From: Psammoneis japonica
Taxonomy: Eukaryota
Assembly: GCA_008632985.1 (NCBI GenBank)
Contig: QPGO01000060.1
Coordinates: forward strand, 62,001-126,000
Direction: 5' to 3'
DNA length: 64,000 bases
The position numbers were made by a program, and so were the translations under genes. The notes below the pieces were generated by a model that was not told where the DNA came from, searched no databases, and saw nothing but the letters and a program-made list of their open reading frames with translations. Of the stretch, positions 31,193-62,104 are shown piece by piece (the first letter of the stretch is position 1; each line of letters starts with the position of its first letter).

Positions 31193-31564
31193 AGCTCGGG
31201 TTTTCATTTTCTGTCTTTCAACTTGGCCTGCACAAATCAACACGCAGTGTCATTTTTCACCACTCGAAACTTTGCACACGCCTCCCTCCAAAAATCACAA
31301 TTGAAAAACCAGAAAACATTTGGGGCTCTGCACAGCGTCAAATTCATGCGAAAAATGGTGAAAATTCAATGGGGCAAGAGCTCGGGTTTTCATTTTCTGT
31401 CTTTCAACTTGGCCTGCACAAATCAACACGCAGTGTCATTTTTCACCACTCGAAACTTTGCACATGCCTCCCTCCTAAAATCACAGTTGAAAAACCAGAA
31501 AACATTTGGGGCTCTGCACAGCATCAAATTCATGTGAAAAATGGTGAAAATTCAATGGGGCAAG
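31193..31564. repeat. 186-bp near-perfect tandem duplication
   Basis: cactcgaaac at 31261 and 31447; tggggctctg at 31321 and 31507. Confidence 0.95.
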
Positions 31565-36871: not shown

Positions 36872-39800
36872 TTAGGCAGAAATGTGGGGGTGGAAGTGAA
36901 AGCCTTGCAACACCTTGCCAAGCTTAGTCACATCCTCATCTTCACCGTTGCCATCCCTCTAGCAGAGTAAACAACATGCAAATGTTAGAAGATTTCGCAA
37001 TGCCAAAACTGCAAGAGTCACAATGGCAGCACATCGGAGAGACTCACTGGATCTTTTCGCGAATATTGGAAAAAGGTGTCGTCTTGTTTTCCGGCTCGAG
37101 GATCGTCGCTGATCTCTGTTGCTTTGAGACGTTCAAGTGATTCCGACCCCATTCCATCACCACGCATGTCTGCAAGAATGAACGACACAAGGGACAGCTG
37201 TGTGTGAGGCAAGCCATCTCCAAACCATTTCAATTGCAAATTCTGAAATGGTGTGGCACTCACATTTAACGTAGGTTGAAGCACCAGTGGCAAGCCTTCT
37301 ACTGTAGTTAACCACAGGGACACTTCGCACGGCCTTTGTTGCGGTGCCATACTGAAAACTCATTTCGTAGATACACTGTTGAAGCTTTTCTTTTGTCAAC
37401 TCGGTTGTAGAGCTTCTGGGCTTCCAAAATCCATTCTCGTTGACTACTGTGCGATAAAGCACAGGTCTAGAAGTGCCTTTCAAACCTCCTTGAGCGGTCA
37501 ACAAGAAGTCGTATCCCCCGCAACCTGCATCCTCGAAAACCATGATTGATCCCTCTGGCTTCTCTTTCACTGTTGGAATGTGCCAAGTCACAGAGCCACA
37601 ATCAATGGCCATGATCCTTTCATCGTCTACGCAAGTTCCGCTTGGAACATTCTTGTCCCTGCCGGGCGGATCATGCAGCGGTGTCACTCTGATGCCGTGA
37701 TCATTCTGAGAGACCACCAATGTGATAGGTGGGGTGCAAAAGAGACACCCGCCGCTACAGTTGGCGGCATTCGGGCAAGAGAAATCAGTGCGTGTCCCTT
37801 GCAACTCATGAAAAGCCGGCCGAATGCTTTGAAGCTCGATTCTGACCAAGCGATCAAAATCTCCATCAGGAACGCCATCACGAATCACCAACACCCGTTC
37901 AGGAGGCATCCGATTGACCTTGGCAAACCTGAAAGCAACATTCTGATGGGTTGGACATCCACGAGGGTGAGCCTGAAGACAAGATGCAAAAATCATCAAA
38001 AGGGGAATTGGCTTCACACACACCTGCATCATCTGTTTGAGGATGGAACCGGCCACGATCGTGCATTTCGTCTGGATGCGAACCTACGTTTTATTTTGGT
38101 TTTAAAACACATTTGAATTTGATGAGGCACACAGCAGACACGAGAATAATTCAGCAGTTCCCACGCACCTCTTGAGTCATTTCCATGCAACCCTCGGCAA
38201 GACAAGCAGACAGGGCTACAACAGTTACAGGATTTCGCCCTTTTCCCGATTCTAGAGTTCAGAGAGACAGACCCATTGATTCGTTTGTTTGTTCGAGAGA
38301 GAGAAGTGTGTCAATCACAATGTGGTAAAGAGCGCGCGATGCAGAAACAATGTCGAAGGCCCTCGCGACTTACCATGAGACAGAGCAATGCCAACAACAA
38401 GGGTGGGAGCCTCTTTCACCCACGTCACGCCGTCTACCACACTTGCATCACAAAACGAAGTCCATGCTCGTGCTTTGTTTGAAGAGTTGTAAAGCTTCGT
38501 ATTGATTTTTAGAGCCACATTTGCGAGACTACGGTAGCAGCACAAAAATGAGAGAAACAATGAGATAGGAAAACGGAAAAAGGAACAAAGAACACCTGTG
38601 CCGGGACCGCTCACTCACTATTGTGCTGGATTCCTGTTGGACTTGAACTTCTCCTTGATGATGCATTGGGTCTGAACTCCACACTCATACTGAGCCATGT
38701 ACTTCACAACATCGTACCAGTCACGGGATCCTTCACTTAAGTAAACGTAGACCATCGCCGGGCATTCTAGCTTGGACACGCAAAACTCATGATACGGATG
38801 CACATTCTCGCAATTGTTCAACTCCACCATTTCCCCATTTTCTAGCAACATGACCAAACGATAGCTAGGATCAGAACAACGGGTCCAAACCCCATTGGCC
38901 ATCTTCTCAAGGTGTCTACCGCCATGAGCTAAGATCGTGTCAAAGCGAACAACACTGTTAGAATTCGCCGCAAACAGAAGAGCCATCACATTGGCAATCC
39001 CTACCTGTGGACCAGCGGAGATCGAACAAATCCACATATCGATTGCCAACAACAGCCATGATTCGGGCCTTCAATTCTTGTCCGGTAGAAAGCATCGCAT
39101 GGTGCGAAAACCTGGCCACGTCCTCTTTGAACACCAGATTAGGCTGAAGTGTTTTGTCTTTACCATTTTGCAAATAGATGACAAGACAATCATGAGTTGA
39201 GTCGTCGTTTTCGTCCACGCAGTGAGTTCGAAACCAACTTCCGGATTGACCAAAGATGCCTTCTCCATCATAAATAAAGACACGCTTTGCTTCTTCAACT
39301 GCATCATGAAAACCTCTCGCCACCTGCAACCACAAGGTGGCATTGATTAAGATGCAATTGGTGTGGCAGTAAAACAACGAGGGTGTCTAAGACAAAAGGC
39401 CTCTTACCATGTCAAAGTTTAAACTGCCACCATCCAGAGTTTGAGTTAACCTTTCGACAAGCAATGCGGAGTTCACGTTGTACGGGAGAGTGACCCCGTG
39501 ACTCTCGAGTGCTCCAAGCATCTGATGCATGAATTCACTGCTTCCTCCAGCTAGATCTAAAACGGCAAATGAAGTCATATCTGCAGGTCTGTAGGTGACA
39601 AATAAAAAGTCGTTCGCAAAGGATGAGAGCAGCGGCAGGACGATGCAACAACTGGGTTGAGAGTTGGACGTACCTGGCAAACTTATCAAGAAGACGAAAT
39701 GAGCCATTCTTAATCTGGGCCTTTTCTCTATTTCCAAACTCAATTCTTGGCTCCTTGAGAAGGGAGGCTTGAAGTCTCATGGGTTCAGGTTCAACGACAA

Positions 39801-41749
39801 CACCAAACTGATTTAAAATGTCACCAGCTCTAACTCCGTAGGTGGTTTGCAACCCTTCAACGAATTGTTTGAATTGTTTGATGTGCTCGATTCGTTGACA
39901 GGCATTTTTTTCATCATTGAACCCAAGAACTTGCTTTGTATGGAAAGGAGAGTTCGCTTCCTTCGTCTTGTGAAACGATTGGTAAATGAATTCAAGAGGG
40001 AAAACACCCTGGGATGTGTTGACTAAAGGCATGTTTGGGTATTTCAACTTAATGCCATATTGCACCTGGTAGTGCTCCGCGACGGTCCTGACGACAGTCT
40101 TGACATCGACATCATCAGCCGTAGGGCGGGACTTGACTTCAAATGTGTATTCTTCTGGATTAAAATATATCCCTGTGCCATCCTGGGACATCTTGAGCTT
40201 CATGTTCTTAACCACCCTCCTGTTGTTGCGTCGAGCTTTTATAACAACTTCTTGACGTGTGTGGCCTTTTGCAAGTTGTTCTACAATTGAATTTGAATGA
40301 AAGTGTGAGTGTACAAAAAAAAAACGCTCGTTCAACTTCATGTGCAGTGCAATCGAAGCCACGCTTACTTTGGATGTACTCTTCTGAACTTTTCTGTCGC
40401 TCGTACATGATGTCGAATTTCAACTTGGAGAGGTTCTTCCAGATTTCGTCCTGGATTCTTTTGTCTGTTATTTTGCTGTGGAAATCTCGAACTCGAACGC
40501 CGGCAACAGTGAATTTCCCATCATCCAAAATGGGAACCTTGGCTCTATTGAAGAAGTTCACCGTGGTGTCGTAGATCATATACCGCTTTTGTTGGAGACA
40601 AAAGCGCGCGACTTGCATCATTCCCCCCAAAGGAAATTCGGTCTAAACGGGACAAAATGCAACAAAATGAAAAGAGATAAGGAAACATCCCCATCTGGAC
40701 CAAAACATAGAGAAGCTGGCGAACGGTAAGCTCACATTGCGACTTCCGAACAGTCTTGACAGACCGTTGCCGAGGAGGTGAGTGTTGTGGGACTGGTCTT
40801 CGGGTTTCAAATAAAAGAAACGAGGCGATCTTCCTTCCGAATGCAGAGTCCCCATGATTGAACTCTTGGCGATTGTTTCTACGGCCTGTCGCGCACGCAT
40901 TTCGTCCTTTTCAAAGTTCACCGGTCCAGCTTCGGTGAGAAACACCGCAAACCACAGATTCTTTGTCTCGCAATAACGTGGTATGTTCACGTAGTAGCAC
41001 TTCTGGTTAATTTGCTTTTGCTGCGGCGGATGAGGTGCACTCACATCCGCGCCTCCGTAAATTCCAGGTGATGGCTGGCCGGTGCTGGTCTCCGGAAGTG
41101 GTTCGGCGGCTTCTGCGTCTTGCACCGTAGGTTCAAAAAGCCGCCCATGACAATACGCACTCTGGCTTCCGTCAGTCTGAAATGAAATAAAAAAGAAAGA
41201 ATTAAAAATGATCGGCAAAAAAGACACATCTTGAGCTTGATGCAGCACCCTTACCGCAAGCATTTTTCCCTCTTTCTGGTAAATCGTGGTGGAGAGTCGC
41301 TCAAGAATTCGGCGTGACAATTCGCTGTCGCCCAGGTTCAAATCAACTGTGCGATCCTCTCCGTCTCTGCGAGACTTGGGGACAAACTGCAGAACAGGCT
41401 TTCCTTGTTCATCCAACATCACGTTATCGTTCTCATCTCTCGTTTTTCTCCTACGTAGTGAATCATAAAGAACATGAGAATTACATCACGCAAAATGTTT
41501 CCGAGACACCATCATCTCGACTCACCTCTCAACTTGCAGGATTGACACATGATATTGCGTAACCCATGGCTCATCTGGATCAACATTTTTAAGCTTTGAT
41601 GGTTCAAACCTCAGCTGAAACAGGTTTGTAATGACATTGTATGTCTCCGGCCGCGAAGAACCGCCGCCGCGATGCACCATTTGACGCTTGCTCCCGCGAT
41701 TGTTCCAATCAGGCGGGCCGTGCCTCATGCCGCTTTGACGGTATGACAT
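36872..41749 (-). CDS. AGO: Argonaute (N, PAZ, MID, PIWI); multi-exon; predicted non-slicing; apparent frameshift near 39015
   Basis: ATG at 41749 then VITNLFQL. PAZ: TVAEHYQVQYGIKLKYPNMPLV...FPLEF. MID: VKYMAQYECGVQTQCI. PIWI: NVALKINTKL, IRDGV, VPSGTCVD, GLKGTSRPVLY. More than ten GT-AG introns traced by eye. C-terminus FHPHISA* with stop at 36872-36874. Confidence 0.95.
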
Positions 41750-42091
41750 GGTTGACGGACCCTGAATGACAGCAGTTGCTTGGTACCTTGAAACTGTTGC
41801 TCTATGCAGCAACGAGGGCTACCGGTACGAGTGTAGAAAGTGTCACGTCGCTGATTTTCGCTCTGCTTTTTTGGAGTGTTTGCTGTGCGATTTGCACGTA
41901 CCGGTAGGCCATTGCATGTACTACATACGAAGTACAGTACATCCACGCACAGCCCTGCCGCTACGTACGTACTCCGAGTAGGACCCTAGCTACTTTACCG
42001 GTAGCTACTAGAGGTACAGTGCTCGTCGTATGGTGCTGCACATCGTGGAGAGTTTGGATCTTTGGTCTCTGGTCATCTGTCTTGAACAGAT

Positions 42092-42276
42092 GTGAATGAG
42101 ATAGGCACATGTACTTTATGACCAAGTGTGCCCTCTCTGACACATGTATGCTAACTAACGTATTAGACATTCAGGAAGCCGTTAGAAGTGTGTTCTCCGA
42201 TCAGCGATTGAGCTGATCGGGTCCCTTCTCGGTTCTCCCACAACTTTTATCAAGTCATCTCAAGCTAGATCTTGCA
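42092..42276 (+). repeat. Gypsy 5' LTR
   Basis: Gap-free alignment to 47552-47736 with 18 mismatches by my count. Confidence 0.95.
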
Positions 42277-42652
42277 CTGTAATTGCAGTGCGTTGTTGCA
42301 GCTTGTTCATTTTATTGTCAACTTTATGACAATGCGAAGAGTGTTGTCGAGAAGAGAGAAAATTTATTTGGCTCGTGCAGAAAATTTCATTCGAAGTCGA
42401 TCAGAAATGCAGCGCAATTACACTCATGAAATTGGCGATTCGGAGCAGCATTTGTTTGAACTCGAATCTCGCACCACTGCTCTTGAATTCGTTGTTGTTT
42501 GGTCATTGATTGTTCTCGTTGTGTGGATCAATTGGGAACGTTTTATTTCGTTCATCTTGTGGATTGTTGATTGTTTGATCGCTGAAGTTGTTCATCGCCA
42601 TGTGTCAAGAAGCCTTGGAGAAAGCGTGCATTGAATGTAAAACCAAAAATTC

Positions 42653-43873
42653 GTGGATTCTGAGCTGCAGGAAGTGAAGCTCACTCAAACCTTCGATGAT
42701 GGCACTGAACTTTCAAAAATGTGTCCCATTTTCACAGGAGAGCATGGAATTGAATCATCACTGCATGTGGAGGACAGGTTCCGGAAGGTGGCAAGACAGC
42801 TAGATTGTGACACCGGAATGGAGTCATTTGATGCTTTCAAGGATTGTCTCCAAGGAACTGCGGAGGCAAAATGGCAGAATGTTGCCACGGGTGTCCCACA
42901 GAATCAACGGACGGCAGCTCGATTTGATCAGGCCATCTCAGCCTGTTGTCTGCGCCATGTGAAACCAACAGCTCGCGACACGATGAAGATGCATTTGCCT
43001 GCTTGCAAAAAGCCTTACTCAGCGGAATCTGAAACTCACATTGATCGCATGGAGACGTTGTTTCATCATGCCAACCATTTGCCTGGTGCCGTTCCTGCAC
43101 TTACAGAGCAGGAGCAGAAGAACATCATCTTTTACACCTTCCCTTTGACCTGGCAGCAGTCCCACATTCGTGCGGGCAAGAACCTTGTTGCGGATTCTAT
43201 GGTGGATGTCCAAGCCTGCATGAGCAACGAGAAAGTGTTTGCCGACGGTCAAGACAACAAGAAGCTCAAGTCCAGCAATGGCAACGGAGGGAACTCCAGC
43301 AACAAAAAGGGAAACCGTGACAAGAAGGACAGTGAGGGCCAACCGAAGGCAGGTGATCCGTGTCCGGTCCTGTGGCACCATGGAAGGCACATGTGGGGCC
43401 AATGTTGTGACAATCCAAACAACCCTAACTTTCGTGGGCCTCAGAACCGTGGCGGTCAAGGAGGAGGCCATGGCGGTGGAGGTCGAGGCAGAGGTCGTTT
43501 CCAAGGAGGCCGTGGTCAAGGCCGTGGAGGCGGTGGACGCTTTGGTGGTCATGGCAACCAGAACCAAGGAGGTCGTGGCACCTGTCACAACAACAACAAC
43601 AACGGAAATCAAAATGACAATGGCAACCAAGGTGGTGGTCAACATCACCACAATGAAAACAACAACCGTGGAGGCCAAGGACAGGCCGACGGATGTGCTG
43701 CTCAAGCAGACAATGTGAACAATGACAACCAGGCTCGAGAAGCTCCTCGTGGTGATGTGCACCATTTCGATGTGATCGGACGAGGCCCTCCACGATGCGG
43801 AGGTGTGGTGAGGTTTCAGCCGGACGGGCAGTTTCCTGGCAGTTCTGAGAAGAAGGAGCTGAATGCTCCGTAG
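42653..43873 (+). pseudogene. gag: Gypsy gag (true start slightly uncertain)
   Basis: Long ORF with CPIFTG, a Cys/His knuckle (CPVLWHHGRHMWGQC) and a Gly/Arg/Asn-rich tail. Confidence 0.85.
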
Positions 43874-44099
43874 CTGAATGCTCCCAATTGCCTGTGAGAG
43901 AAGCATTTGTTGAAGAAAATGATTGTGTTTTGCCTGAATGAAATGATGAATGTTTTGCTTTTGATTGTTTTGAAAATCCTGACGAATTGTCACCTGTTGA
44001 ATTTGAAAATGCCACAGAAAATTGCATGAATGAAGAGGGGGATGTGTTTGATCAAGATGCATTTGAACACAACACTCCTCTCCCCAAAATGAGTTCGCA

Positions 44100-47000
44100 A
44101 GTCTCGCGCACCGCATTGGTTCCATCTACACTGCTTGTTGCAAAATCAATTCAACGGCATGAGTCAAATCGTGTGATGCATGCATTTGTTTGATTCGGGT
44201 GGTTCTCACACTGTGATTTTGTCCCAAGTTTTACCTCGAGGAGCCACACCATCTGTTGACGAACATGGAGTCCGAGCGTTTCAAACCGTGGCAGGTCCTT
44301 TCCAATCGGGTCATTGGGCAGCCTTGAGCGATGTCGTGTTGCCGGAATTCAACAAAACTGGGAGGATTGACGGCTGTGTGGCTCACGCGTTCGATGCTCC
44401 GTGTGCGTGTGACATCATTTTGGGTGAGATTTCTTGGACAAGATTGGTCTCAACCTGAACTACGACATGAGGACACTGCGATGGCTGGACCGTGTGATCC
44501 CAATGAAGGAGCCTCGTCATTGGTCCAAATCTCACAACTGGCATGTGGCTTTAGATCGAATGGATGAATTTGATGAAGAGTGTGAAGACGAGTCAGACTG
44601 TGGATGCGATGATGGATGTGACAACTGTGTGCTCAACGCCAAGCATGAAGCAACGGATCCAGCGGAAGTGGTTCGGAACTTAGATCATCTCACGGAGGAG
44701 CAAAAGAAGAAGCCATTGGCGGTGTTAGAAAAATGTTCAACCTTGTTTGACGGAACTTTGGGGCACTGTCCTCATGAAAAGGCACACCTCGAAGTGGATG
44801 AAAATGCTGTTCCACATCACTCAAAACCGTTTCCTGTTGCTCGAGTCAATGAAGAGGCGTTCAAAAAGGAATTGAAGCATTTGGTGAATCTTGGCGCACT
44901 TCGACCATGTGGACCTACGGAATGGGCAGCCGGTGCCTTTGTTGCTCCAAAAAAGGACGGCCGAGTACGATGGGCATCCGATTTTTGGGAGCTCAACAAG
45001 GTCCTCAAACGAAAAGCATGTCCTCTGCCAGTTGTTCAAGATGTGTTGCAGCGGAGAGCGGGCTACAAGTTCTTCACGAAATTAGATCTCATGATGTTCT
45101 ACTACAATTTGGAGTTGGACAATGAAAGCAAGGAGCTCGCTACGATTGCAACCCCGCACGGGAAGTTCCAGTGTTGTCGTGTGGCTGTGGGATTGAAGCC
45201 AGCTCCAGACATTGCTCAGTCCATCATTAAAAAGATCCCACATGGTTTGGATGTGGAAACTCACATTGATGACATTGGCGCATTTGACACTGACTTTGAT
45301 TGCCATCTCTCTTGTCTTGACAAGGTGCTGCATCGTCTCAAGGAGAATGGTTTGAAAGTTAATCCGTTGAAGTGCGAGTGGTGTGTCCAAGAAACTGATT
45401 TCCCAGGGCATTGGCTCACTCCAACTGGCATCAAACCGTGGAAAAAGAAGGTCGAGGTGATCCTGCGAATGCAACCTCCACGGGATGCCACTCAGCTCCG
45501 GTCGTTTCTCAGTGCAGCAACTTGTTGTCGTAACATGTGGCCTTGCCGTTCTCACCTGCTTGCACCTCTGACTGAATTGACAGGCAAGAGTCAGTTCCAA
45601 TGGACAGAGTCATGTCAGAAAGCGTTCAAGGAGATGAAGGCAGCAATCGCGGCGGAAGCGTTGATGGCCTGCCCTGACCACAACCTGCCATTCCATGTCT
45701 GCACCGATGCATCAGACCACCAGATGGGTGCCGCTGTCATTCAAGATGGTAAACCTGTGGCGCATTGGTCTAAGAAGCTCTCGGCGGCTCAACGAAATTG
45801 CTCAACAATGAAAAAAGAACTCCTGGCCGTCGTCATGTGCTTCAAGGAATTCCGCTCAATGTTGCTCGGTGCTGACATTGCTGTTCATGCTGATCACAAA
45901 AATCTCACCTTTCGCAATTTGAACACGCAGCGCGTCCTTTGTTGGCGACCATTCCTCGAAGATTTCGCACCCACCTTCAAGTGCTCGCCGATTGTTTTTC
46001 TCGACTCCCACGCATGGATCCGCCTTCGGAGGGGAAGAGCCTTGGGCCAAGTGGCAAACGCAAAGGAAAAATTGTTCATTTTGAAAAGTTGGATTCCAAG
46101 GAACTGAGCAAAGCCGAGGAAGAGGAAGATTTGGAGTTGGGTGCTTGTAGGTTCAAGTGTTGCCGTGCTCCAGTTGATCCTTCTGATGAGTCTCACGCTG
46201 CCTTTTCCTCTCTGCTTGATGAGCCTGAATTGTTTGAATGCTTTTTGAATTGCCCGACGCTGGACGAAATGCCAAATCCCACTGAGACACTGAGGATGCA
46301 ACAGCTCCAGTTCGAAGACCTCCAACTGAACCAGCAAAGACAACAAAATCCGCAGCAGTTCGTGGTCAAGATTGTGAATCATCGCCCCCTGATTTGTTGT
46401 TGTTTGCATCTGAATGATCCGCCTGGAGCCTGGAAAATTTGCATTCCTGCTGCGTTGTTGCCGGATGCCATTGCATGGTGCCATCGCGTGTTGGGCCATT
46501 GTGGAGTCGTGCGATTGCATGAAAGCATTCGGACTCATGTGTGTCATCCTGCATTGCGTCGACGTTGTAACAAATTTGTTTGCGATGCGTGTCAACGATT
46601 TAAACAACTGGGTCCTGGACATGGAGAATTGCCTCAACGTCAAGCACCTTTGGCTCTGTGGACGGAAGCAGCGGTTGATCTCATTGGACCGTGGAAAATG
46701 CCAATTCAAGACCAAGAGATTGAATGCAGCGCTCTCACTTGTGTTGACACTGTCACTGGATTGACTGAACTCGTGCGCATTGACAACAAAACTTCTCAGC
46801 ATGTGACCAACAAGTTTCGCAACCTTTGGTTGGCTCGTTGTCCCAGACTGAATCAATGCATCCATGACAATGGTGGAGAGTTCATTGGTTGGGAGTTTCA
46901 AATGCTGCTAAATCAAGCGGGTGTTGCTGATGTGCCGACGACGTCTCGAAATCCCACAGCCAACTCCATTTGTGAACGAATGCACCAGACGGCAGCTGAC

Positions 47001-47444
47001 ATCACACGCACTGTGGTTGTCGCTGACCCACCTTTAAATGTTCAACAGGCTGAGCAGATTGTGGACGATGCCCTTGCTGCAGCCTCTTGTGCTTTGCGAT
47101 GCTCCCACTCAAGGTCTGTGGGTGTTTCAAGTGGAGCTCTGGTGTTTCAACGTGATGTGATTTTGGACTCACCTGTTGTCTCCAACCTTGCTGCGATGCA
47201 TGCCAACTGACAAGTGTTGATTGATGAGAATCTACGATGACAGAATGCGAAGCGCCATTCCTGCGATTGTCCAGTTGGTCAAGATGCATTGATCAAGTCG
47301 GTGGATCCTTCAAAGTTGGAAGAACGAGCCTGTGGTCCATTTCGAATTGTGCAAGTCCATGCCAACGGGACTGTTTTGGCACTGCAAGCACCGCACGTCA
47401 TTGAGCGAATTAACATTCGCCGCGTGGTGCTGCATCGGAGTTGA
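44100..47444 (+). pseudogene. pol: Gypsy pol (PR, RT, RNase H, IN) with frameshifts and TGA stops
   Basis: DSG; PKKDGRVR; FFTKLDL; HIDD in place of YIDD; TDASD; DHKNL; VDLIGPW; HDNGGEF; NSICERMH; GPF near the C-terminus. Confidence 0.93.
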
Positions 47445-47551
47445 GGGTTTCTTCCCAACGTCTGGGTTCCCTTCTCCGTGCGCATTGGGTTTTGAATTTT
47501 AGTCAAGTGGTTCCAATGGTGCGCGTGTTCCTTGCACCATGGAGGGGAAGA

Positions 47552-47736
47552 GTGAATGAGACAGGCACATGTGCTTTATGACCAAGTGTGCCCTCTCTGA
47601 CATGTGCACATTAACTGACGCATTAGATGTTCAGGAAGCCGACAGAAGTGTGTTCTCCGATCAGCGATTGAGCTGATTGGGTCCCTTCTTGGTTCTCCCA
47701 CAACTTTTGTCAAGTCATCTCAAGCTGGATCTTGCA
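47552..47736 (+). repeat. Gypsy 3' LTR
   Basis: Follows the PPT and matches the 5' LTR. Confidence 0.95.
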
Positions 47737-48549
47737 AGATGCATGTGCAGTGACTTTGCGATCACAGCATGGTGAATTCCGGATTCCTTTCAATCTTCTT
47801 GTAGATCAAGTTGCGCGCAGACTTGGGTGGCCGCAGAGGGCATGGCACGGCAGGAATGCGCATGCGGGAGGAGGAGAAGAGGTGGGGGCAAGACGGGGTG
47901 GGCAGATTGACGGGCGAGATGGGGTGGACGGATTGACGGGCGGGTGCATGATGGGTGAGCAGCAGGGAGAAAGAATGTCCGGAATCACAGGCGATGATTT
48001 TTGATTGGTGGTGGTGCAGGAAACAGTTGCAAGGTGATGGCGATGTGTCAGTTAAAGTGATGAAAGGGGGAAAAAAAGGAAATGTTTTGCACGCAAAGCG
48101 GTGCAGTTGGCCAAAAAAAAAATTTAACAAGGGGAGAAAAATGTTGGGAAAGGGGATTTTCAAACAGGAGCCATGTGGAAAAGACATTGAGAACATTGCA
48201 TGTGTGTTGTTTTTCATGGTGGTGGAGCATCATTGCAAAAGCACTTGAGTGTGGGGTGTCACAATGAAAAATGTGCACGCGCAAGCAATCGTGAAAATGA
48301 TGGAGGGAAGTTTTGGTGTGTTTCGAAAAGCAAAGCACTGGAGTGTTTCTCAAAACAAACTTGCAGCAGTGTTTCTGATGATGACATGATGGAGAACAAC
48401 AGGGATGGACGAAACAAGGGAGAGAAGGATGAGAAGAGAGGAAGGGAGAGAAGGAAAAATGACGAAGAGATTGGGAGAACAAAAAAGGAGCAAAAGAGAG
48501 AGAGAGTGAGCGGGAAGAAAGGAAGGCACTGCCACTGGCTCTGATTCCG

Positions 48550-51487
48550 GTGATGCCCATTTTGCTGCATCCTGTTCAGATTGATGGGGTGTCATTGCAT
48601 GACGGAGTTCAAATGTTTGCAGAAGGATGGAACAAGCCCATTGTGTTTGGAGTGCAGTCGGTTTTGCCTGTGTTTGATCCGAAGCAAATGTCGAAACATG
48701 CCAGAGCAAAGTTCAAGATGCGTCAACATTGGCAAGAGGTGGTCTCAAAGAGGAAGAAGTTGAGAACTGAAATGCAAATTAAGAGAATGGAAAGTTCATT
48801 CAAAAAAGGAATTGAAGTGAAGAATGTGATGGGGAGCAGTGCTGAAAAAGGCGAAGGAAAAACCTGGAAATGCAGGAAGTGTTTTGTGAAGCAGCCGTGT
48901 GGTGTAGACGGAGTGAAGTTGTGTTGCATGTGCGATGGTGCAAAGGTGCAATGCAAGGCAGAAGCAAGGAAGAAAGTGGACATGTTTGATTTTGTGGATG
49001 ACAATGAAGGAGATGATGATGAGACGTGGATGCCGGAGGGCGATGCAAAGGAAATCAAAAGGAAGAAGGTTCTCAAACAAAAAAAGGATCAAAAGAGAAA
49101 GCCGTCGCAAAGAGAAAGGAAAGAAAAAGAAACAGGTCAATGCAACGGTTGCTGACAAGAAGATTTGGTGGGAAACAACAGCAAATGTAGAAGAGGCACT
49201 TGCCAAGGAAAGAATCGGTGGCTCAGAAGAAGCACGCAAATGGGGATTGGTTGTCTTTGTTCCTGAGGTTCTTGTGGTGACCCATTTTGTGCATCAAGAG
49301 AAGTGTTGCCTGCAGAGAAAGGAAGCAAGGGAAAAGCACATGGCTGTGGCAGTCTTTGTTCAATGAGCCAAATGCCAAACAGCGTCATCACCAAGATTGG
49401 ACACTGGTTGTCACGGAGCGTGTCCGATGGAAATGGCTGAGACAATGAGAGAAGCTTTTGAGGTGAAGGTCATGGCAATGAAGAACGATTCGAACCACAT
49501 GGTGGATGATGCAGATCCGATGGCATCAATTGCAATGAATGGCCATCCGAGGTTGGAAGAGATGTGGAAGAAAGCATTTGAATTGTTTTGGATGCACACG
49601 GAAGCAGCAACAGTCAATTTCGTGCACTGCAAAGAAAGGAACTTGATTCAAGAAAATTTTGGATTGAGTTGTCAACAAGCTCAGGCGATGTGTGAGTTTC
49701 AAGGGTTGATGCTTGCGGGTTTAGGGGCATCTGTGAAAAAGCACAAGACCAAGTTTTCACAGCTTGTTGGAGAGACAGCTGTCTTGATCTGGGATTTTGC
49801 AGTGGATGTTGTGTGCCGTGGTGATGATGTGAAGCACTTTCCCATTTCAGAAGAAAGAGACAAGCTTTTGGAGAAATTTGGGGATGTGCTGAATCTAAAG
49901 CATGCAAGAAACATGGTCCATTCGGCAGTGCACGTGCACGCTTCATGCCACACAAATCTTCATCTCGATGACAGAAATTCATCTGAAGAATCGGAGAGCA
50001 TGTCGACAGGATTGAACACGTTGTTGGACATGCATCAATGGTTTGAGGAAAAGAGGCAGCTTTTTGAGAGCAAGGGCTTGAAGGGAAGGTTTGTCAACAT
50101 TGGCGTTGCATGTTGTGGTTTGCAACATCTCACTGCATGACTCAAGTCATTGGAAAAAGAGAAGAATGCCAGTTTGTTGTTAAAGCAAGCATTGGATGCT
50201 GCTTTTGATGATCCAGATTGGCAAGACATAGACCCAACAAAGAATTGTCCGAATGCAGAAACGGAACAAAGATTCCACGATTGGTGCAAGATGCAAAAAC
50301 CTTTTGCTGACCCAGGGAACGGTGGCATGAAAATTTATGGTTCGGAATTGCTGGAGCAAATTACAAGAACATTTTGGCATGGGTGCATGTCAGACATGCT
50401 GTTTGGGTTTTTGCGTTGGTTGGGAGTGTGCCCAGCACATGTTGTTGTCACAAGCAAAGATGTTGTTCATTTGGAGTTGTTTGTGTGCCATGATTGTCAT
50501 GGACAGTGGACACCAGTTCACACATTGTGGAAGTTCATGAACAACGGGTTTCAAAGCGGCAGGATGACTTTTTTGGAGGCAATTGCGACAGAGAGGAACC
50601 TGTGTGTGTCATGTGGTGCAGAATTGCATTGCATCACATTCGGAGAGGAAATGCCTTTGGACAGGCCAATCCTGAGGAAGGGCAAGGATGTGAGACCAAA
50701 GTGTCTTGTGGGTGCTTGATGCAAAGCAGGCATGGCTCCGTTGGCACAATCCATTGATGACAAAGCGAAAGTGTTGCAAATGGGTGAACATGCAAAGACT
50801 CAGTTGGAGCATCTTTGGGTGAACACAAAGGTGATTCGGCCCAGTGCCAAGACGGTGCACACAAACATCAACAAGAGTGAGATGATGCACGGATTTGGTC
50901 ACTTGTCAACTGTGGATTTTGTGCGGATGAATGCGTTTGCTGGGTTGGTTCCATGCCCATGTGCTCTTGAGGCGTTCGTTTTGGAAAGCCCTGGGTTCGG
51001 TCCACATTCTTGGTTTCATGTACACGGGGGTGATTCTTGTTACGATGATGATGGCTGTGTGCTTTCGATGGAAAGACAATTCAACAATCTCATGCAAGAA
51101 GCCAAGGATTGCAGGAAGGAACATGTCAATGCCACGTCTGTGGAGCAGTTTGCATGTCCCAAAGGTTGGTCCTTCTGGAAGGCAGAGTTTCTCACCTTCA
51201 TCAAAAACCATCTGCAGACATTCATTCATGTGTTTTGTGCTCCGTCAAAGCACAAGTGTCATCACATGCTTCATGCAGAAGGGAAATGGGTTCTTTTTAG
51301 CAAGGTGACATGGACTGTCTGTCCCAGAACCAAAAAATGTGACGCTTCTTTCAAGGTGGAATTTCTTTGGACAGATGCAGATGGAAATGTTTGTTTTCCG
51401 CACGGGCACACCATTCCCAATGCCAAGGCACAATGTGATGCATTTGTGCGCAATGCATCAATTCATTGGTCATGGTGTTGCTGTTGA
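48550..51487 (+). pseudogene. Long hypermutated ORF of an unclassified element
   Basis: ORFs 49397-50140, 50150-50719 and 50732-51487 share one frame and are split only by TGA. A Lys/Glu-rich upstream ORF lies at 48550-49155. Confidence 0.6.
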
Positions 51488-51599
51488 CCATCACTGGCAC
51501 CACATGCAGTTCAACATAGATGAGTGCAACAGGCACAGCAGCAAACTGCTTTGGACAGAGTTCCGTCTTTTGTTGTGTTAAGTTCCGTCTTTCATTGTG

Positions 51600-54500
51600 T
51601 TGAGTTCAATGAAGCGGTTGCAGATCCAACCCCAGAGTGAACCCCGGCCGCTCCCAACCCCGCCACTCCTCCTCTGCATCCGCCAACTCCACATCCAACC
51701 CTCCATCCTGGACCCTCGTCAGCCACAAACGCCGCAACACTGACAGCACCCCACCTGGCCCCTTTGACACCATCCTCAATGCACCTGTCCCTCCATCCCA
51801 GCAAGACATTGATGGAGACTGTGTGTCCAATGATGCACGCATGGACAACCTCACCCTCTTCGGCAAAGACGATGACCCCAACGACAACACCGATGCCACG
51901 AATGTGATGTCACAATGTGACATCAACCACTGCGCCACCCTCACCACATGGGTCCACACCCATTGCCCTGAGTGCCTTTGAGAATGGAAGCGCATTAAAG
52001 CTCGGGCTGTTGAAGACAACACCGATCCGCAATCTTTCCACCAGCATCTCCAAGAGTGGAACCCCCAAGCACCATGTGTCTGGAGTGCCCACACTGTGAA
52101 TGGTCTCCACCAGAAAACACTGCCACCCAAGACCTCCCCAAGGCAGTCCGAGCTCACCTGTGGGCCAAGCATAAAACCCCAGACCAATGCTTTCTCCAAC
52201 AAGACTTCCTCTCCCAAGCCAACCCACACTCATGCCACATCTGCAACTCTGTGCCTGCGCCCTGGCAACCTGCGCAACCATGTTGCCCGCCATGACCCCC
52301 CCCCCCCCGCACTGAAGCAAACTCTGCTTTCTCTTTGAAGCACTTGTCCTTGCTCCGCCTCACTGCTCCCCCACCACAAACCCCAAACGCTGCCCACCCG
52401 CTTCCTCCGTTGCCTCAACATGCCTCAAACTCTTCCAACAAGGGTGCACCCGTGAACTGCATGACACAGCATGTGCCACCACCCCTCATTCAGCTCCCAA
52501 CACCAATGTCCCTGACTTCTCTGCTTCCACCTGCTGCCACGCAGCTCAAGCATCCGCAGACACTGACAACTTTGGTGCAGCTTACCGCCGCATCACCTCC
52601 AACCTCCCAGTTGCCACCATTGATGATGCCCACCTCCAGCTCATCCACAAACTGCACCCACCTCACGCACCACGCCCACCCCAAGTGCCCACCACCAACA
52701 CATGACACTCCACACCTCCCCCGTCCCCTCCATGCATCTCCGATGACCACCTCCTTGCTGCCCTCAGCAAGTGTAAACCCGGCACTGCCACCAGCCCGCA
52801 TGCTGACTCCACCGACCTCCTCAAAGGCCATGCCCTCTGCAAAACAAGCACCCCCACGAAGCCACAACTCCGCCCACACCTTGCCACCTTCAAAGAATTC
52901 TTGATGATCCTCCAAACCAATTCTGTCCCTCCTGACATCCAGCCACTCATTGCCGCCAACCACTTCATGGCACTCCACAAAGACCCCACCAACCTTGACA
53001 AGTTGCGACCCATCGGATGTGCAGTGCCACCATCCGAAGCATTGCCGACACCCTTGCGATGACCATCAATGCACCTGCCCTCAGGGAACACCTCCTCCCC
53101 AATGGACAATTTGGAACAGGTGTCAAAGGCGGCCTCGACTGCCTCATGCACGCCACTCACGCCAACGTCGAACACTGCCTCAACACTGCCACACCAACCC
53201 ATGCCTTCCTTGCTCTCGACCTGTTCAACTTCTTTAACGAATGCTCACGCAACACTTGTCGGGAATTCCTCAACAACACACCTGCCTTCAGACACCTTGT
53301 CCCCATCTTTGACCTCTGCTGCAACACGACAAACATGTGCTGGCACCGCGATCCAGATGGCAACTGGCGATTCTTCCTGCAACCCGAAGGCTTCTCTCAA
53401 GGATGCCCACTTGCTCCTCCGTTCTCCACTCTCATTTTAAGCATCATCCTCAAACAACTCAATGCTGAACTTTGCCAATGCCTCCCATCCTCCAATGTCA
53501 CATCAACTGCCTCCCTCATCGATGACACCAGCATTTGGCTCCCGCACACCAAACTGCCATGGTTCCCACAATGCCTCAAGGAATTGGGCCCTCAACATGG
53601 CGTCCGCCTCAATCGCTCCAAGACACACATGCTCACCTCCATCACCAGCACTGGGCCCTCACTGAACCTGCCCCCAGCAAGCGCTGACACCCTCTGCCAA
53701 GCCCTGTGCTTCCTTGACCCTGCTGACGACCCCACTCTGCACCCCAAAATCACCACTGGCCTCTGCTTCCTTGGCCAACCCATCGGCAGCCCTGCTTTTG
53801 CCCGCACCTGCCTTGAGCAAAAAGCCACCACCTTTCACACTAACCTCAACCGCCTCTCATCATGCCTGCATGACACCCAAACCAAAAGCTCCCTTTGCCG
53901 CACCTGTGCCATCCCATCACTTCTGCACCTTCTGGCATCCAATGTCCACTTCAACTTTGACCCAGACAACCACCACCCCTCACCTCCTGGACCTCACCTT
54001 TCCAACAAGAGGCCCAGTGCCACTGCGATGCCTGCCTGCAACATCTTACAGCACAACAACAGCCATTGCCACCATGCGCCATGCTCCTTGCTCACCTCCC
54101 CACATCCTCCGGCGGCATTGGCCACTGATCCACATCCACCTCCGCCATCCCCTTTCTTGTCTCTCAACTAGCCCGCTCCTTTCGACATGCAACACATGGA
54201 CCAACTGCAGGCAATGACGACTCCCTCAAACTCCCACCCTTCTGCGCTTGCTCCCTCCACACTTGGGCCACCTCCCGCCGCCCCCTGTGCCTTTGTCAAG
54301 CATTTCAGCACTGCAGAACAGCTGCCATAAACACCCTTGACCCTCCCCCACCCTCCCTCAAGGCCCTCATCAAAACACACCCGTTGCGCAACCTTTCCCA
54401 CACCCTGTGTCATGCACACTTCCAACTTTGTGCTCGAAGACCTCTAACTGCATGGACTGCCACACGTCACCCATGCACTCCCCTCCCTTCTCTCTCCACT

Positions 54501-55555
54501 TGCAAGTCTCACACTCCACTCCCTTGCCCGCTTGCTGCCCCAACACAATGCCTGAACCCTGAGCAGTTCCGCCTCGTGCTGCAACGCAAACTGCAGCTCC
54601 CCATCTCGCCCAACCAGCTAGAGTCCACCTCTTGCCCCTCTTGCTCTGGCACCACTGACCCATGCGGCAACCACGCCTTCTGCTGCCGATCACTCGGACA
54701 CAAAACAACCATGTCCAATGCCATCCATGATGGCCTGCATGCTGCTTTCCAAACATTTGCCCTGCTTTCCGGCATCTGTGCTGACTCTTCCGCCATGCAT
54801 CATGAACCAACAAACCTGATGCCTCATTCATCCCACAAACGCCCTGCTGATGCAGGCATGCAACTTGCCCCAGCCGCCTCTGCTGCCTCCCCTCTCGGCC
54901 ACCGACACCTCGCCATTGATGTCACCATCCCTGAACCTCCCCCATTGCCTGCTCCTGGCTTGCCTGCCCCCACCCTTGATCCTCACACCAAGGCACACCA
55001 TGCAAGCACAAAATGGAAGTTCAACAGAACCCATGAGACTCAAAATGAAGCAACCCTTGCATCCGCCCTTAACAACACCGGCATCCACCTCATTTCCTTC
55101 ACCATCGACCATCTGGGAGCCCCGGGCTGCTTCGCCCATCGCCTTCTTTTTGGCGCCAACCAAGACCACCCCATCCCTGCCCCACCTGCCCCACCCTGGA
55201 CCACTGAAACCTCCTTCATGCACCCAGCTGCTCACGTGGCTGCCTGTGCCTGCGCCCAACAATCCCCGTCCGACAACCTCCCTGCTGCCACTGCCACCTG
55301 GCAAACCATGATCTCTGCCGAACGCTTTGGCTTGACCCGCCAGCACTCTTCAACTCCATCACAATGGGGTGTTCAAAGCCTGAGCCTTGCTGTTGCCAAA
55401 TCGCTCGCTGACCAACTAACCCGCTGCTCCACCAAACTGCAATCTCAAACATCCAACCCCAACTCGAAATCCATCCCTTTTCCTGCCCACATGACTCAGC
55501 ACAGTTCCACCCTTGCTCCGCGTCTGTCCCTCCCCCATGCCACCAGGTGACGTTG
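51600..55555 (+). mobile_element. Near full-length CRE-like non-LTR retrotransposon (zinc fingers, RT, CCHC, restriction-like endonuclease), mutated
   Basis: C2H2 fingers CPHC...HLWAKH and CHIC...NHVARH. RT motifs LRPIG, QFGTGVKGG, LDLFNFFN, GFSQGCPL and LIDD. CPSC...DPCGNHAFCC. Endonuclease motifs KRPAD and AIDVT. Confidence 0.9.
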
Positions 55556-55565
55556 CACGTGAAAT

Positions 55566-55757
55566 CGAACAAATCTCAATGTAACAAAAGAACAAGCACG
55601 ACACCTTACGTCCAACAGAAAGTTGTGACACTGTCAATGCAAACCCAAACCTGATTAGATTGTGTGCGTGTTGCTAGAACACCACTCGATGCATGCATGT
55701 TGACCAGTCACCAATCACAACATTGTCCTCCCTTCCTTCTCCATCCAGATTCACTCG
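55566..55757 (-). repeat. Copia 3' LTR
   Basis: Aligns to 62105-62298 with 15 substitutions and one 2-bp indel by my count. Confidence 0.95.
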
Positions 55758-55920
55758 GTCCCCGCGAAACGGCAATGACAATGCCGATTTGTCTAAACCC
55801 ACAACATCCTCTCACAGAGAGGTAAACCACAAAACCCAAATTAAACCACCAGACATGCTGGCTTGGGAGGCCGAGACACGTGGGTGCAAGCCACAGGTGC
55901 CTGGCCTTGGTGTTGGAACA

Positions 55921-58900
55921 TTGCCAAAAGATGCACGAGCAAAGCTTCCATCGCCGCTCTCCTGCAACCATTTTTGCAAGTAGATCTGCCAAGTTTGTTT
56001 CCGTGTCCTCCTTGCCAACATGAACAATTCCCGACCGCTTCTCGCACAACATGGTGGTTGATGGCATCATGCTTCTCATGCAAAACCAACTCAGGCACAC
56101 TTGCATTCTTCACAACACCACGATCATCACAAAAGACACTTGCCGGTCCTTCAAGGGGAGCTCCAAACATGCAAAGCTTGTGATGCAAAGCGACAATCAA
56201 CTCCTTGCAAATCCGCATCGCAACCAATTCACTTCCAAACGTCGCCGATTCCACCGTGTTCTGCGGCTTGCTGAACCACACCACTGGTGCGTTGTTGACA
56301 AACATCAGAGTTCCGCTGTGCGACCTGCGAGTTACGACATTCCCTGCATGGTTAGCGTCAACAAATGCACAGATGTTTGCCGGGTTGCCACGAGGCTTCG
56401 GTGCCCATGGTGGCAGTTCCTCCTCAACGTCCCTCTAAAACTCGGTCCAGTCTGCATTCGAATTGAAAATGGATTCATCAATCACCGGTTCTTTCGGATC
56501 GAATCCAATGCGTCCAACGTTCTGGTGCTTCTTCACATGCGCAAATGCATGATGTGATGCTTCAAGGTGTCCTTTCCTTGGATTAGCTTGACATTGAGAT
56601 AGGATTGAAACCTCATGCAAGATGTCGGTGCGACCCAACTCGATCGCCCACCGACAAATCCCTGTCAACTGTAAATGCCTGTCCACCAAGTCGGGGCCTA
56701 GCTCGTCTGTCACGTCCAGTTCCGGTTTGTGCTTCAGGGGCAGTGGATCCTTTGCACTGTTCTTCAGAACTTCTCCATTGCCGTCTTCATCCAGCAGACC
56801 CTCCACAGTCTTAATTGCCGATTTGGCATATGACCTCGGTGAACTCACCCAGATTGTGCGCCCATCCTGAGTCTGAACCTTCTCAATGTTAGCTCCAAGA
56901 TGAACCTCTGGCTCTCCTTCGCTGCCGGGCTTCACAGCATGGTGCTCACCTGTTGCAGCAACAATGGACTTCCCTTGATGGGAAATGATTGGCACATCGT
57001 CAACATAAACCAAAAGCATTTCACAATGCTCATGCCCATCTTCACGAGTTGCCGCACGCAAGTGAACATCTGGATCCGCTCTCGTCGATTCAAAGCCTGA
57101 GTCACGTGGGACCGATGACAGTGCAGACCTCCAAGACCATCCCGAGCTCTTCAAGCCACATGACGCCCGAGTGACAACAAGCACCTTCCCTTCACACTCG
57201 CCGCATTCCTTTCCGCCTTCGAACCATGTCTTCTCTGCGCACGGTGCATTGAGACAAGCATTCTCCAGATCAACCACTGTGACATCGATTCCATTCAAAG
57301 CTGCCAGCAAGAACCCAAGTCGCACACTGTCTCTAGAAACCACGCTAGAACAAGCAATCGATGCCGGAGCCTCTGTCGTGTGGCCGCCAGCTACAAACCT
57401 TGCCTTTCTGGTGAAATCCATTTTAATGTCAAACACCATGTGGCTCCTGATCTCCTGACAACCACGCAAAGTTGCACCTTTGCTTTTGTCATCTCCTTGT
57501 TGATTGCACGAGCCCAACAGTCTGTCCCCATTTCCTGGTCTATCTGCAAAGCGTCCTCCATTGACTTGGGTGATCGGATGCCAAACTTGTGAGTCGTGCG
57601 CCAGTGCTTCTTCTCAACCTTGGATGCAATGCGATTCCGTTTGCGTGGGACATGCGTGACCCACCAAGCAAAAGCAGGCTCCTCAGTCAACCTGTTCGCA
57701 ACAGCACATTCAGCAACTTCAATTGGGTTAGAGTCCTTTAGATCTTTGAGTTTGACCCAAGATGAGCTGCCATCCTTCCATCTGACCAACAGTTTCCATC
57801 CTTTTGTCGTGATTTTCTTCTTCTCCTTCCCGTCAGTGGTTCGTACGGTGCCATCAGCAACCGACACTGCATCGTCACTTCTCTCGTGGTCCTGTATTTC
57901 GTGTAAGATGGAACACTGGTTGCCTTCGCTGTCGACCTGAGCGAACATGTTCTCGGCAATTACATTGGCTGTGTGCTTGTCTGTGGTGCCGTCGGTGCAT
58001 TCCACTTCGTGTTCGCGAGTGTCAAACAATGGGTTTTGATGCCGAGTCCCAATTGGACGTCCATCCTGTCCTCTTGCACGTTTCGTTACAACACCGCGTC
58101 GTTCACCGTCGGTTCCAACGTCAAACATGAGTTCCATTCCCAGGCATTGATCAATTGCCTGTTCGTCATCATCGTCCGGTCGTTCGTCGGGTGATGGCAT
58201 GTTGCCACATTCCTCGTCCTCAGGCATGATGCCACCCTCACATTCCACACCGGGGTTGCCGTCAATTGCAAGATTGTCCAACACGAATGCAGGTGCTGCT
58301 TCATCACCCTGCAAGACAAAGTTAGCATCATCCAATCGCTTTTCCAGCTGCTCATTAAAGTTGTCAATCTTAACGCGAACATCTGGTTGCACCACATCAG
58401 CCTGTGTCACGTGCTCAACGGATGTTTTGGAGACAATCTTCCCGCTTTCCGCAACAATCCAACAGCACGTGTCCGAGCCAACTTTGTGTGAGATGCCAAG
58501 CCACCGTCCAAGCCTTCGAGGGTCATCAGTTGCACTCGGCTTGTTGGGCCTGTCCCACCACCACACCATGTCGCAGAAACCAAAATCTAGATGCTCGCCT
58601 GTTTCTGGTGTCTGTCCAGTGACCTCTTCACATCTGGTCCTCTTGTCTCTGCCTCTTGCCATGCGCGACACTAATTCCGACTCACAAATGAGACCAAAAT
58701 CCCATGATCGTCTTGGCACCTTCTTCTTCATCATTCGCAGCTGCCAACACTTGGCCAAGAAACCAATTTTGCGCTCCGCTGCCTGGCTCTGGTTCTTCCG
58801 ACCCTGTTCCGATGTTCTCAACTGCATTCTCACATGTCGTGCATGCCTTGCAAACTCGGTGCTCTTTCCAGTGAACTCTCCTGCCCCATCCGACATGAGA

Positions 58901-62102: not shown

Positions 62103-62104
62103 AG

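Follow-up and report, generated by a model that had tools for sequence, protein, structure and literature searches.

Loss of TA dinucleotides from two LTR retrotransposons and older repeats in a genomic window of the diatom Psammoneis japonica

We analysed a stretch of 64,000 nucleotides from the diatom Psammoneis japonica (contig QPGO01000060.1 of assembly GCA_008632985.1, positions 62,001 to 126,000 of the forward strand), hereafter called the window, whose own numbering is used throughout. It contains a Ty3/Gypsy element and, ~8 kb away and in convergent orientation, a Copia element, each with two long terminal repeats (LTRs) that differ chiefly in that the outer LTR has TA where the inner one has CA or TG. 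The two outer LTRs, both of them 5' LTRs, are the edges of one 20-kb repeat island, each beside a host gene (Table 1). These differences, together with the residues encoded at conserved positions and the dinucleotide composition of the window, make it very probable that TA was lost from the inner LTRs and the element interiors, with a distinct signature, in a direction away from TA and by a process acting in situ.

Asymmetry between twin LTRs and direction of the change

The Gypsy element is delimited by a 185-nt direct repeat (42092-42276 and 47552-47736, identity 90%), on which a previous reading of the sequence alone had based its comparison of the LTRs. The repeat itself stands, but its bounds are not the true LTR ends, which the TG...CA termini and the target-site duplication place at 42093-42276 and 47553-47736; the shared G at 42092 is part of the duplication and that at 47552 is the last base of the polypurine tract. 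Direct LTRs with TG...CA ends, flanked on both sides by a short target-site duplication, are typical of Ty3/Gypsy elements, and so is the Pfam domain order, with RVT_1 and RT_RNaseH in 44428-46107 followed by Integrase_H2C2 and rve in 45939-47210. Relatives of identical Pol domain order align over the whole pol region in tblastn. The closest named relatives of the pol protein are diatom proteins at ~50% identity, and the best unnamed matches reach 61-63%. A primer-binding site complementary to a tRNA was not recognisable, without comparison to a tRNA set, in the sequence CTGTAATTGCAGTGCG... that follows the 5' LTR.

The two copies of this repeat show 18 mismatches in 185 bp, in exact agreement with the earlier count. 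At eight of them (42102, 42113, 42147, 42157, 42161, 42183, 42249 and 42267) the 5' LTR has TA and the 3' LTR has CA or TG (four of each), and at no site is TA restricted to the 3' LTR (8:0, p = 0.008). Six further mismatches form three adjacent CA/TG swaps (42143-4, 42149-50 and 42168-9), two are CG in the 5' LTR and TG in the 3' LTR (42218 and 42230), and there remain one transition (42151) and one transversion (42182). Sixteen of the 17 transitions fall in a pyrimidine-purine (YpR) step, a context that accounts for 49% of LTR positions (binomial p = 9.8e-5). Relative to its twin, the 3' LTR has CA or TG at 8 of 11 TA and TG at 2 of 6 CG. The three swaps would fit either an ancestral TA struck in both LTRs or an ancestral CG; derivation from TA would give the more coherent rates, with 3/14 TA and 0/6 CG changed in the outer LTR and 11/14 TA and 2/6 CG in the inner one.

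The Copia element repeats this pattern. Its 5' LTR is assigned to 62101-62298 because TATCAGAGCC, which we take to be an initiator-tRNA primer-binding site, adjoins 62101 on the minus strand. A target-site duplication, AAATC, is found at 55562-55566 and 62299-62303, and the first five nucleotides (AAATC) of the inner copy, 55562-55757, probably belong to it. Between these two LTRs, TA is restricted to the outer one at ten sites and to the inner one at none, with six CA and four TG as products, and CG is restricted to the outer LTR in a ratio of 2:0; the other differences are one swap, two transversions and a 2-bp indel. All 14 transitions lie in YpR steps (p = 9.3e-5). With both pairs pooled, the TA asymmetry is 18:0 (p = 7.6e-6), or 22:0 when the CG sites are included, and the similar numbers of CA and TG products in each pair (4:4 and 6:4) indicate that both strands were struck.

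Since the AGATG duplication of the Gypsy element is intact, the element results from one insertion event and its LTRs were identical at integration. With AGATG and AAATC both intact and the twins identical at the start, the process must have acted after integration and on DNA, which bears out the timing first suggested for these changes. The suggestion that the gene-proximal LTR is the spared one is likewise supported, as the observed/expected ratio (O/E) of TpA is 0.79 in the Gypsy 5' LTR, whereas its twin has 0.24 and the interior 0.12. In the pooled inner LTRs, 18 of 26 TA and 4 of 14 CG have changed, and non-YpR mismatches number four in 380 bp. From these counts the rate can be roughly put at 1.18 substitutions for each TA, compared with 0.005 per site and lineage for non-YpR mismatches. 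Per site, the TA process would be roughly 100 times faster than the background.

A different timing is implied by RNA editing before integration, in which an enzyme resembling the adenosine deaminases acting on RNA (ADARs) would edit UA in double-stranded retrotransposon RNA, the changes being fixed by reverse transcription. We know of no ADARs outside animals. The targets here are retroelements, and sense-strand TG is slightly above CA (ratios of 1.30 and 1.19 in the two elements). As in animal ADAR hyperediting, according to the accessible text of a preprint on the alga Bigelowiella natans (Mettrop et al., 2026; bioRxiv 10.64898/2026.01.13.699255), the change is A>G, a preceding U/T is preferred, matching the motif, and repeats are targeted. 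However, ADARs act on RNA and both LTRs of an insertion come from one template, so they cannot be made to differ in this way, whereas the twins of the Gypsy and Copia pairs are told apart by 8 and 10 TA sites and have intact duplications; the changes are also on both strands and affect the old tracts described below. Editing at the RNA level could at most add to the in situ process, and as the explanation of the pattern we consider it highly improbable.

As a baseline for the LTR tallies we used 78 Gypsy-related loci in metagenome contigs from other organisms. The 11 LTR-like repeat pairs with mismatches, tallied beside one long internal duplication, presented mixed spectra with transversions and no asymmetry, which fits a lineage-specific process. 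Left out of the tally were 12 terminal repeats at 100% identity and three at >99%; many of the untallied terminal repeats (111-127 nt, at contig ends) are probably assembly overlaps. Scans by LTR pattern for further copies of the Gypsy family gave none in viral contigs and none in metagenome contigs.

Without an outgroup a pair of LTRs shows asymmetry only, and polarity was taken from the coding interior of the elements in comparison with relatives. When the Gypsy pol is aligned with 23 relatives, 18 columns have Tyr in at least 60% of them, and the window copy has at these columns three Tyr, eight Cys, five His, one Trp and one Phe. Over 209 conserved columns there are 36 differences, including 20 single TA>CA/TG changes, 3-4 cases of CpG decay and one TG>TA. 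With 120 relatives retrieved by tblastn, 63 of 362 conserved codons differ, by TA>TG (19), TA>CA (10), CpG decay (7), TG>TA (1), other changes (15), more than one change (9) or ambiguously (2). An independent search with the Copia element gave 150 relatives and 28 differing codons among 197 conserved ones, ten by TA>TG, four by TA>CA, three by CpG decay, eight by other changes and three by more than one.

Conserved Tyr (TAY) is kept in only 3 of 16 Gypsy and 2 of 12 Copia columns, and reads Cys (TGY) or His (CAY) in 12 and 9 of them, respectively. Conserved codons overall are retained at 299/362 and 169/197, so it is Tyr alone that collapses. The adjacent host gene for an Argonaute protein, taken as a control, keeps 9 of 12 conserved Tyr and 200/244 codons overall. 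Pooling the inferred single changes gives 43 TA>CA/TG against one in reverse (Gypsy 29:1, Copia 14:0). [quoted passage not shown]

The RIP of ascomycetes changes C to T at CpA, raises TpA/ApT, lowers (CpA+TpG)/(ApC+GpT) and mutates both copies of a repeat. The process described here resembles it in being transition-only and dinucleotide-specific, in acting on repeat or foreign DNA, in wrecking transposon genes and in distorting LTR dating. In contrast, RIP makes TpA from CpA by attacking C and creates TAA and TAG stops, whereas here TpA is destroyed, A:T is attacked and TAA and TAG are erased. The dinucleotide indices used to detect RIP are reversed in the Gypsy interior (TpA/ApT 0.12, (CpA+TpG)/(ApC+GpT) 1.62). 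A RIP-like change towards TA would require a TA-poor family whose outer LTRs gained TA after insertion through C>T at CpA. Such a reading could draw on the few sites, discussed below, at which other family copies share the CA or TG state or the window copy alone has TA, and on the single TG>TA coding change. It is largely refuted by the conserved Tyr columns that read Cys or His in both elements (43 against 1). Furthermore, the Tyr of the Y-x-D-D box of the Gypsy reverse transcriptase reads His (CAC at 45262), which an active element could hardly have had. The 78 related metagenome loci have a TpA O/E of 0.45-1.00, so that 0.12 is abnormal and derived and 0.79 is normal for an element of this kind. 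RIP would also have struck both twins, against the 18:0 found, and it creates TA, whereas the old tracts of the window are nearly free of it. The chance that the change was RIP-like is, in our judgement, very slim.

Diatom transposable elements are CpG-methylated, and decay of methylated CpG is evident in the island: besides the CG>TG differences at 42218 and 42230, most old tracts have a CpG O/E of 0.02-0.25. The Gypsy pol changes frame near 44425 and 45981, as seen in tblastn alignments of relatives, and the in-frame stops in these alignments are all TGA; opposite the integrase stops at 47208 and 47238 two relatives have Arg (a third has Asp opposite 47208), so these stops may well have arisen by CGA>TGA. 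CpG decay in both LTRs was our initial reading of the mismatches, and an ancestral CpG is known to leave CA/TG swaps behind. If all sites had been CpG at insertion, TG or CA would represent a single deamination and TA a double one. Each of eight sites would then need three hits, and every double hit would have to lie in the LTR that keeps its other six CpG, although the TG or CA product is no longer a CpG target; and this reading fails on the loss of TA, on Tyr>Cys/His and on TA-free DNA. The initial reading was dropped on the composition and Tyr-column evidence, and the probability that CpG decay alone accounts for the pattern is next to negligible. CpG is nevertheless lost to TpG or CpA within these tracts too, and the outer LTRs are again the ones spared (2:0 and 2:0); this CpG loss is a minor component (4/14 CG against 18/26 TA lost) and cannot cause the loss of TA.

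Contigs from sequencing runs X1-X3 were aligned to the window at 80% likeness, and 3404 of them fell on the Gypsy element. The family is abundant, its summed depth being ~3000 against 65 in the unique flank, and blastn found no further copy of it in the window. Among the 31-mers sampled from 38000-47800, 73% were found in run X1 contigs (inside the element at least about half). One run X1 contig enters the element from the unique flank and agrees with every base of 41800-42120, including the first 28 nt of the 5' LTR; this confirms TA at 42102 and 42112. The variants in the aligned contigs are C>T (316), G>A (317), A>G (244) and T>C (245), with 16-33 of each transversion.

These data also bear on a base-calling or assembly artefact, by which modified bases at TpA and CpG in silenced repeats would have been misread strand by strand. 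Strand-specific misreading of a modified T or C would produce exactly either CA or TG, and run X1, on which the check leans, may be the assembly's own data. Base modifications are, however, not known to show in accurate reads, and the exact element 31-mers in X1 contigs, with a word depth of ~65 in the unique flank, fit accurate reads. In addition, 610 aligned contigs show a likeness of at least 99%, and at such sites the window copy is unlike other copies of the family. In B. natans, as far as the accessible text of the preprint describes, Illumina data gave this signature in the form of real new mutations. An artefact has, in our view, only a slim chance of being the cause.

For comparison with other copies, LTR starts were taken from three junction strings and one loose end, and 40 of 1326 family variant positions were considered, of which a single one, 42168 (T at 44% of depth), lies in the LTR. 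At 42102-3 the 5' LTR has TA, the 3' LTR has CA and three of three other copies have TG; with these three states, a TA ancestor needs the fewest changes. It would be unsafe to polarise the sites by a majority consensus of the family, since most copies have been struck and only two products are possible.

Several observations weigh against the reading of TA loss. At 42112-3, two of two other copies have TG, as does the 3' LTR, and the TA at 42313 and at 45229 are private to the window copy, 16 of 16 other contigs having CA at the first and 19 of 19 having TG at the second; the change at 45229 is the one polarised coding change that runs from TG to TA. We interpret 42112-3, 42313 and 45229 as parallel hits in the other copies combined with the spared rim of the window copy, and under a consensus test 42112-3 would wrongly read as a refutation. 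Outgroup data for the 18 LTR sites are thin, given the variant positions considered, and the family varies at many non-YpR sites, with a deep subfamily structure that complicates the use of other copies. Run X1, of unrecorded library type, may be the window's own assembly data. Finally, the pattern stands without replication outside the window and comes from only two LTR pairs in one island, in both of which the spared LTR is at once the 5' and the gene-proximal one.

The depleted domain and its spared border

The genic DNA of the window has a TpA O/E mostly of 0.4-0.6 (0.26-0.63 per kb) and a CpG O/E of 0.75-1.15. The outer LTRs have a genic look (TpA 0.79 and 0.85), and the inner LTRs (0.24 and 0.27) resemble the interiors, in which TpA and CpG O/E are 0.12 and 0.74 for Gypsy and 0.15 and 0.80 for Copia. 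Wherever TpA O/E is below 0.2, CA+TG O/E rises to 1.5-2.06 per kb, in runs of 4 to 17 kb. The old tracts at 8001-12000 and 15001-31500 are depleted as well, with a TpA O/E of 0.00-0.19, CpG mostly at 0.02-0.3 and CA+TG at 1.6-2.06. Together these cover ~20 kb with CA+TG at about twice the expected level, and the kilobase 18001-19000 is without any TA. No Pfam match was obtained among the 19 open frames tried in the two tracts. They are presumably very old repeats, the end-point of the same TA-erasing process.

Depletion also alters the appearance of open reading frames. TAA and TAG together drop from 26-38 per kb in genic DNA to 5.6-9.2 per kb where TA is depleted, with TGA unchanged, and many long open frames are found on both strands because TAA and TAG have been erased. 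Long open frames were for this reason rejected as a mark of an intact element. A search of 28 open frames at E-values up to 0.1, aimed at the identity of the old TA-free tracts, gave no credible Pfam match, the four matches obtained being far below the curated cut-offs.

At the edge of the Gypsy element, TA density declines as a gradient rather than as a step at the LTR boundary, with five TA in 145 bp (42280-42419) and roughly one every 200 bp further in; at the Copia end it is raised from ~61870 up to the LTR. At either end of the island, 0.35-0.45 kb thus separates the mutated domain from the junction with host DNA. A chimeric origin, in which recombination or gene conversion joined an unmutated LTR to the mutated body of another copy, could call on the many exchange partners offered by so abundant a family (depth ~3000 against 65), and on an LTR divergence that is high, at 10%, where non-YpR divergence is 1%. 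Both elements, however, have perfect 5-bp target duplications, the gradient over 150-330 bp inside the outer LTR shows no junction, and the same arrangement occurs twice, always at the island's outer edge. We regard a chimera as very improbable in both cases.

Two identical sequences only 5.5 kb from each other met different fates, so targeting cannot be directed by homology alone. The simplest reading is that position or chromatin state would provide it. The border of CpG loss coincides with that of TA loss, a weak hint that cytosine methylation and the TA process occupy the same domain. A transcription-linked cause for the spared rim is possible, although the rim extends past any possible LTR transcription start.

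Related mutational systems and a possible mechanism

Within the library of papers searched, we found no report of TpA-erasing mutation in diatoms, and the sole precedent found was the B. natans preprint. In mutation-accumulation lines of that alga, two integrated viral regions yielded 231 mutations, of which 230 were A>G or T>C and fell on TpA without exception; the rate was ~1000 times the background, and only some lines were affected (bioRxiv 10.64898/2026.01.13.699255). The accessible text of the same preprint describes TpA-poor, CpA+TpG-rich clusters in the genome, with TpA-poor genes enriched for reverse transcriptase and DDE domains, and its authors propose adenine deamination and point to an ADAT2-like protein (bioRxiv 10.64898/2026.01.13.699255).

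As far as that text goes, the two cases agree in the change of TpA to TpG or CpA on both strands, in its confinement to regions of foreign origin and in a long-term trace of clustered TpA depletion with CpA/TpG enrichment. Here too the host genes keep a normal spectrum, judging by TpA and Tyr retention, and the changes are confined to repeats. There are also differences. B. natans is a chlorarachniophyte, and hence a rhizarian, and its targets are giant-virus and virophage inserts, whereas the present host is a stramenopile diatom and the targets are LTR retrotransposons and old repeat tracts. The depletion is far deeper here (O/E of 0.00-0.15 against a Rho of 0.45 in the B. natans region derived from nucleocytoplasmic large DNA viruses, NCLDV) and coincides with CpG decay, which is absent from the B. 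natans description in the text available. The evidence in B. natans is experimental, from mutation-accumulation lines, whereas ours is comparative and from one window; relative to what the preprint text presents, the twin LTRs add proof of post-integration action and the sparing of a 0.35-0.45 kb rim beside host genes.

A mechanism consistent with these observations can be outlined. Repeat islands very probably undergo a DNA-level A:T>G:C transition that strikes the adenine of 5'-TA-3', whichever strand it lies on, at about two orders of magnitude above the background and alongside a slower decay of CpG to TpG or CpA. The Gypsy element inserted once, with identical LTRs and a normal TA content, after which its interior and inner 3' LTR lost ~70-85% of their TA. 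Its outer 5' LTR and the next 150-330 bp, abutting the Argonaute upstream region, stayed almost intact. At the island's opposite end, the convergent Copia element is a mirror image. Targeting would be by position or chromatin domain, probably a silenced, cytosine-methylated domain that is losing CpG.

As to the chemistry, adenine may be deaminated to hypoxanthine at TpA, as proposed for B. natans; an enzymatic deamination in this context is an appealing but tentative suggestion that we draw by analogy. An alternative chemistry, likewise argued from analogy, would be modification of thymine. The modified base 5-hydroxymethyluracil prefers TpA. In dinoflagellates, another lineage of the stramenopile-alveolate-rhizarian (SAR) group, it marks transposable elements and is tied to silencing, according to the accessible part of the report (PMC11572971). 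Mispairing of a modified T with G would lead to T>C.

Taken further, the process could be a diatom genome-defence mutator that deaminates adenine at TpA in DNA, aimed through chromatin rather than by sequence homology, stopping one to two nucleosomes before active genes, homologous to the B. natans process and ancient and widespread in SAR, a proposal that we find attractive but rather doubtful as a whole. If a chromatin-aimed mutator of this kind exists, TA-free tracts could be read as fossils of silenced chromatin, and the ages that LTRs give for diatom transposons would be several-fold too high. The occurrence of the same signature, far more advanced, in a diatom suggests a defence shared across distant marine protists rather than a one-alga curiosity.

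Some consequences concern sequence analysis itself. Around 70% of TA can be removed while background divergence is ~1%, so that dating by LTR divergence is here inflated about nine-fold (10% against 1%), and family consensus sequences are biased to CA/TG. Open reading frames in depleted tracts are uninformative, two of the three stop codons being erased, and old copies defeat homology searches, their codons for Tyr, Ile, Leu and Val having been systematically rewritten. The differing fates of the twin LTRs also argue against targeting that is purely guided by homology or RNA.

Feature coordinates and minor observations

Table 1. Features of the window discussed in the text (window coordinates; TpA and CpG values are observed/expected ratios)
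Feature	Position	Strand	Remarks
Old tract, nearly TA- and CG-free	15001..31500	.	TpA 0.00-0.13, CpG 0.02-0.69 per kb; CA+TG O/E up to 2.06
Host Argonaute gene	37157..41485	-	Piwi and PAZ domains; TpA 0.39, CpG 0.85
Gypsy left target-site duplication	42088..42092	+	AGATG; same 5-mer at 47737-47741
Gypsy 5' LTR (outer, gene-proximal, spared)	42093..42276	+	TG...CA ends; 11 TA, 6 CG; TpA 0.79
Spared rim, inner part	42277..42420	+	TA at 42280, 42313, 42325, 42365, 42419
Gypsy Gag-like open frame	42641..43873	+	no family match
Gypsy Pol (protease-like stretch, reverse transcriptase, RNase H)	44186..45981	+	Pfam RVT_1, RT_RNaseH, RT_RNaseH_2
Gypsy integrase (H2C2 zinc finger, rve core)	45981..47438	+	Pfam
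Gypsy polypurine tract	47541..47552	+	GGAGGGGAAGAG; from sequence
Gypsy 3' LTR (inner, hypermutated)	47553..47736	+	TG...CA ends; 3 TA, 4 CG; TpA 0.24
Gypsy right target-site duplication	47737..47741	+	AGATG
Older repeat debris between elements	47742..55561	.	TpA 0.07, CpG 0.43
LINE-like reverse transcriptase in debris	52999-54171		RVT_1 match under Pfam cut-off
Copia 3' LTR (inner, hypermutated)	55562..55757	-	4 TA; TpA 0.27
Copia interior	55758..62100	-	Pfam RVT_2 in 56435-57613; TpA 0.15
Copia 5' LTR (outer, gene-proximal, spared)	62101..62298	-	15 TA, 8 CG; TpA 0.85, CpG 1.08
Open frame of 555 codons, running off the window	62335..63999	+	TpA 0.50, CpG 1.04; 37 bp from spared Copia LTR

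The Argonaute gene has diatom relatives at 30-50% identity, and the spared Gypsy LTR lies ~600 bp from its first exon. A gene of the Argonaute/Piwi type, belonging to a small-RNA pathway, is thus found beside silenced repeats, with its upstream region abutting the spared LTR; its position next to a transposon island is probably a coincidence. At the other end of the island, the 555-codon open frame gave no Pfam match. Its length is meaningful because the composition there is normal, and it is probably a host gene.

In the Gypsy element, the TAG at 43871 that closes the gag-like frame is private to the window copy, 11 of 11 other contigs having G as the first base and hence GAG. This change is a transversion and is not tied to the TA process.

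The 121 TA that survive in the island (42500-61800) differ in context from the 383 genic TA, being enriched in TTA/TAA and depleted in ATA/TAT: T precedes in 55/121 against 103/383, and T follows in 8/121 against 99/383. The mutator may read beyond the dinucleotide, but this is suggestive only, as the composition of the island and genic TA classes differs. The sense-strand TG/CA ratios given above were obtained over 42500-47552 for Gypsy (1.30) and 55758-61800 for Copia (1.19), and Tyr>Cys exceeds Tyr>His by 15 to 6; a transcription-linked strand bias behind both excesses is possible, though neither is significant alone.

GC skew is very strong in some depleted tracts (-0.45 at 52001-56000, +0.37 at 48001-50000 and -0.32 at 10001-12000), and the tract 52999-55550 has 44 GT against 229 AC. 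This skew may come from strand-biased mutation or from the original composition of the repeats.

Outside the island, a tandem duplication in genic-looking DNA (3812-4263 and 4300-4750, ~84% identical) presents a milder asymmetry, with TA only in the first copy at six sites against one in reverse, CG only in the first copy at nine against four, and six CA/TG swaps, among 20 other transitions and 31 transversions. The kilobase 4001-5000 has a TpA O/E of 0.28, against 0.53-0.61 in its neighbours. A 33-bp tandem repeat at 7024-7281, seen as six overlapping 93-nt copies at 33-bp spacing, lies inside a 397-codon open frame (6759-7952) and encodes a repeat rich in Glu, Lys and Arg.

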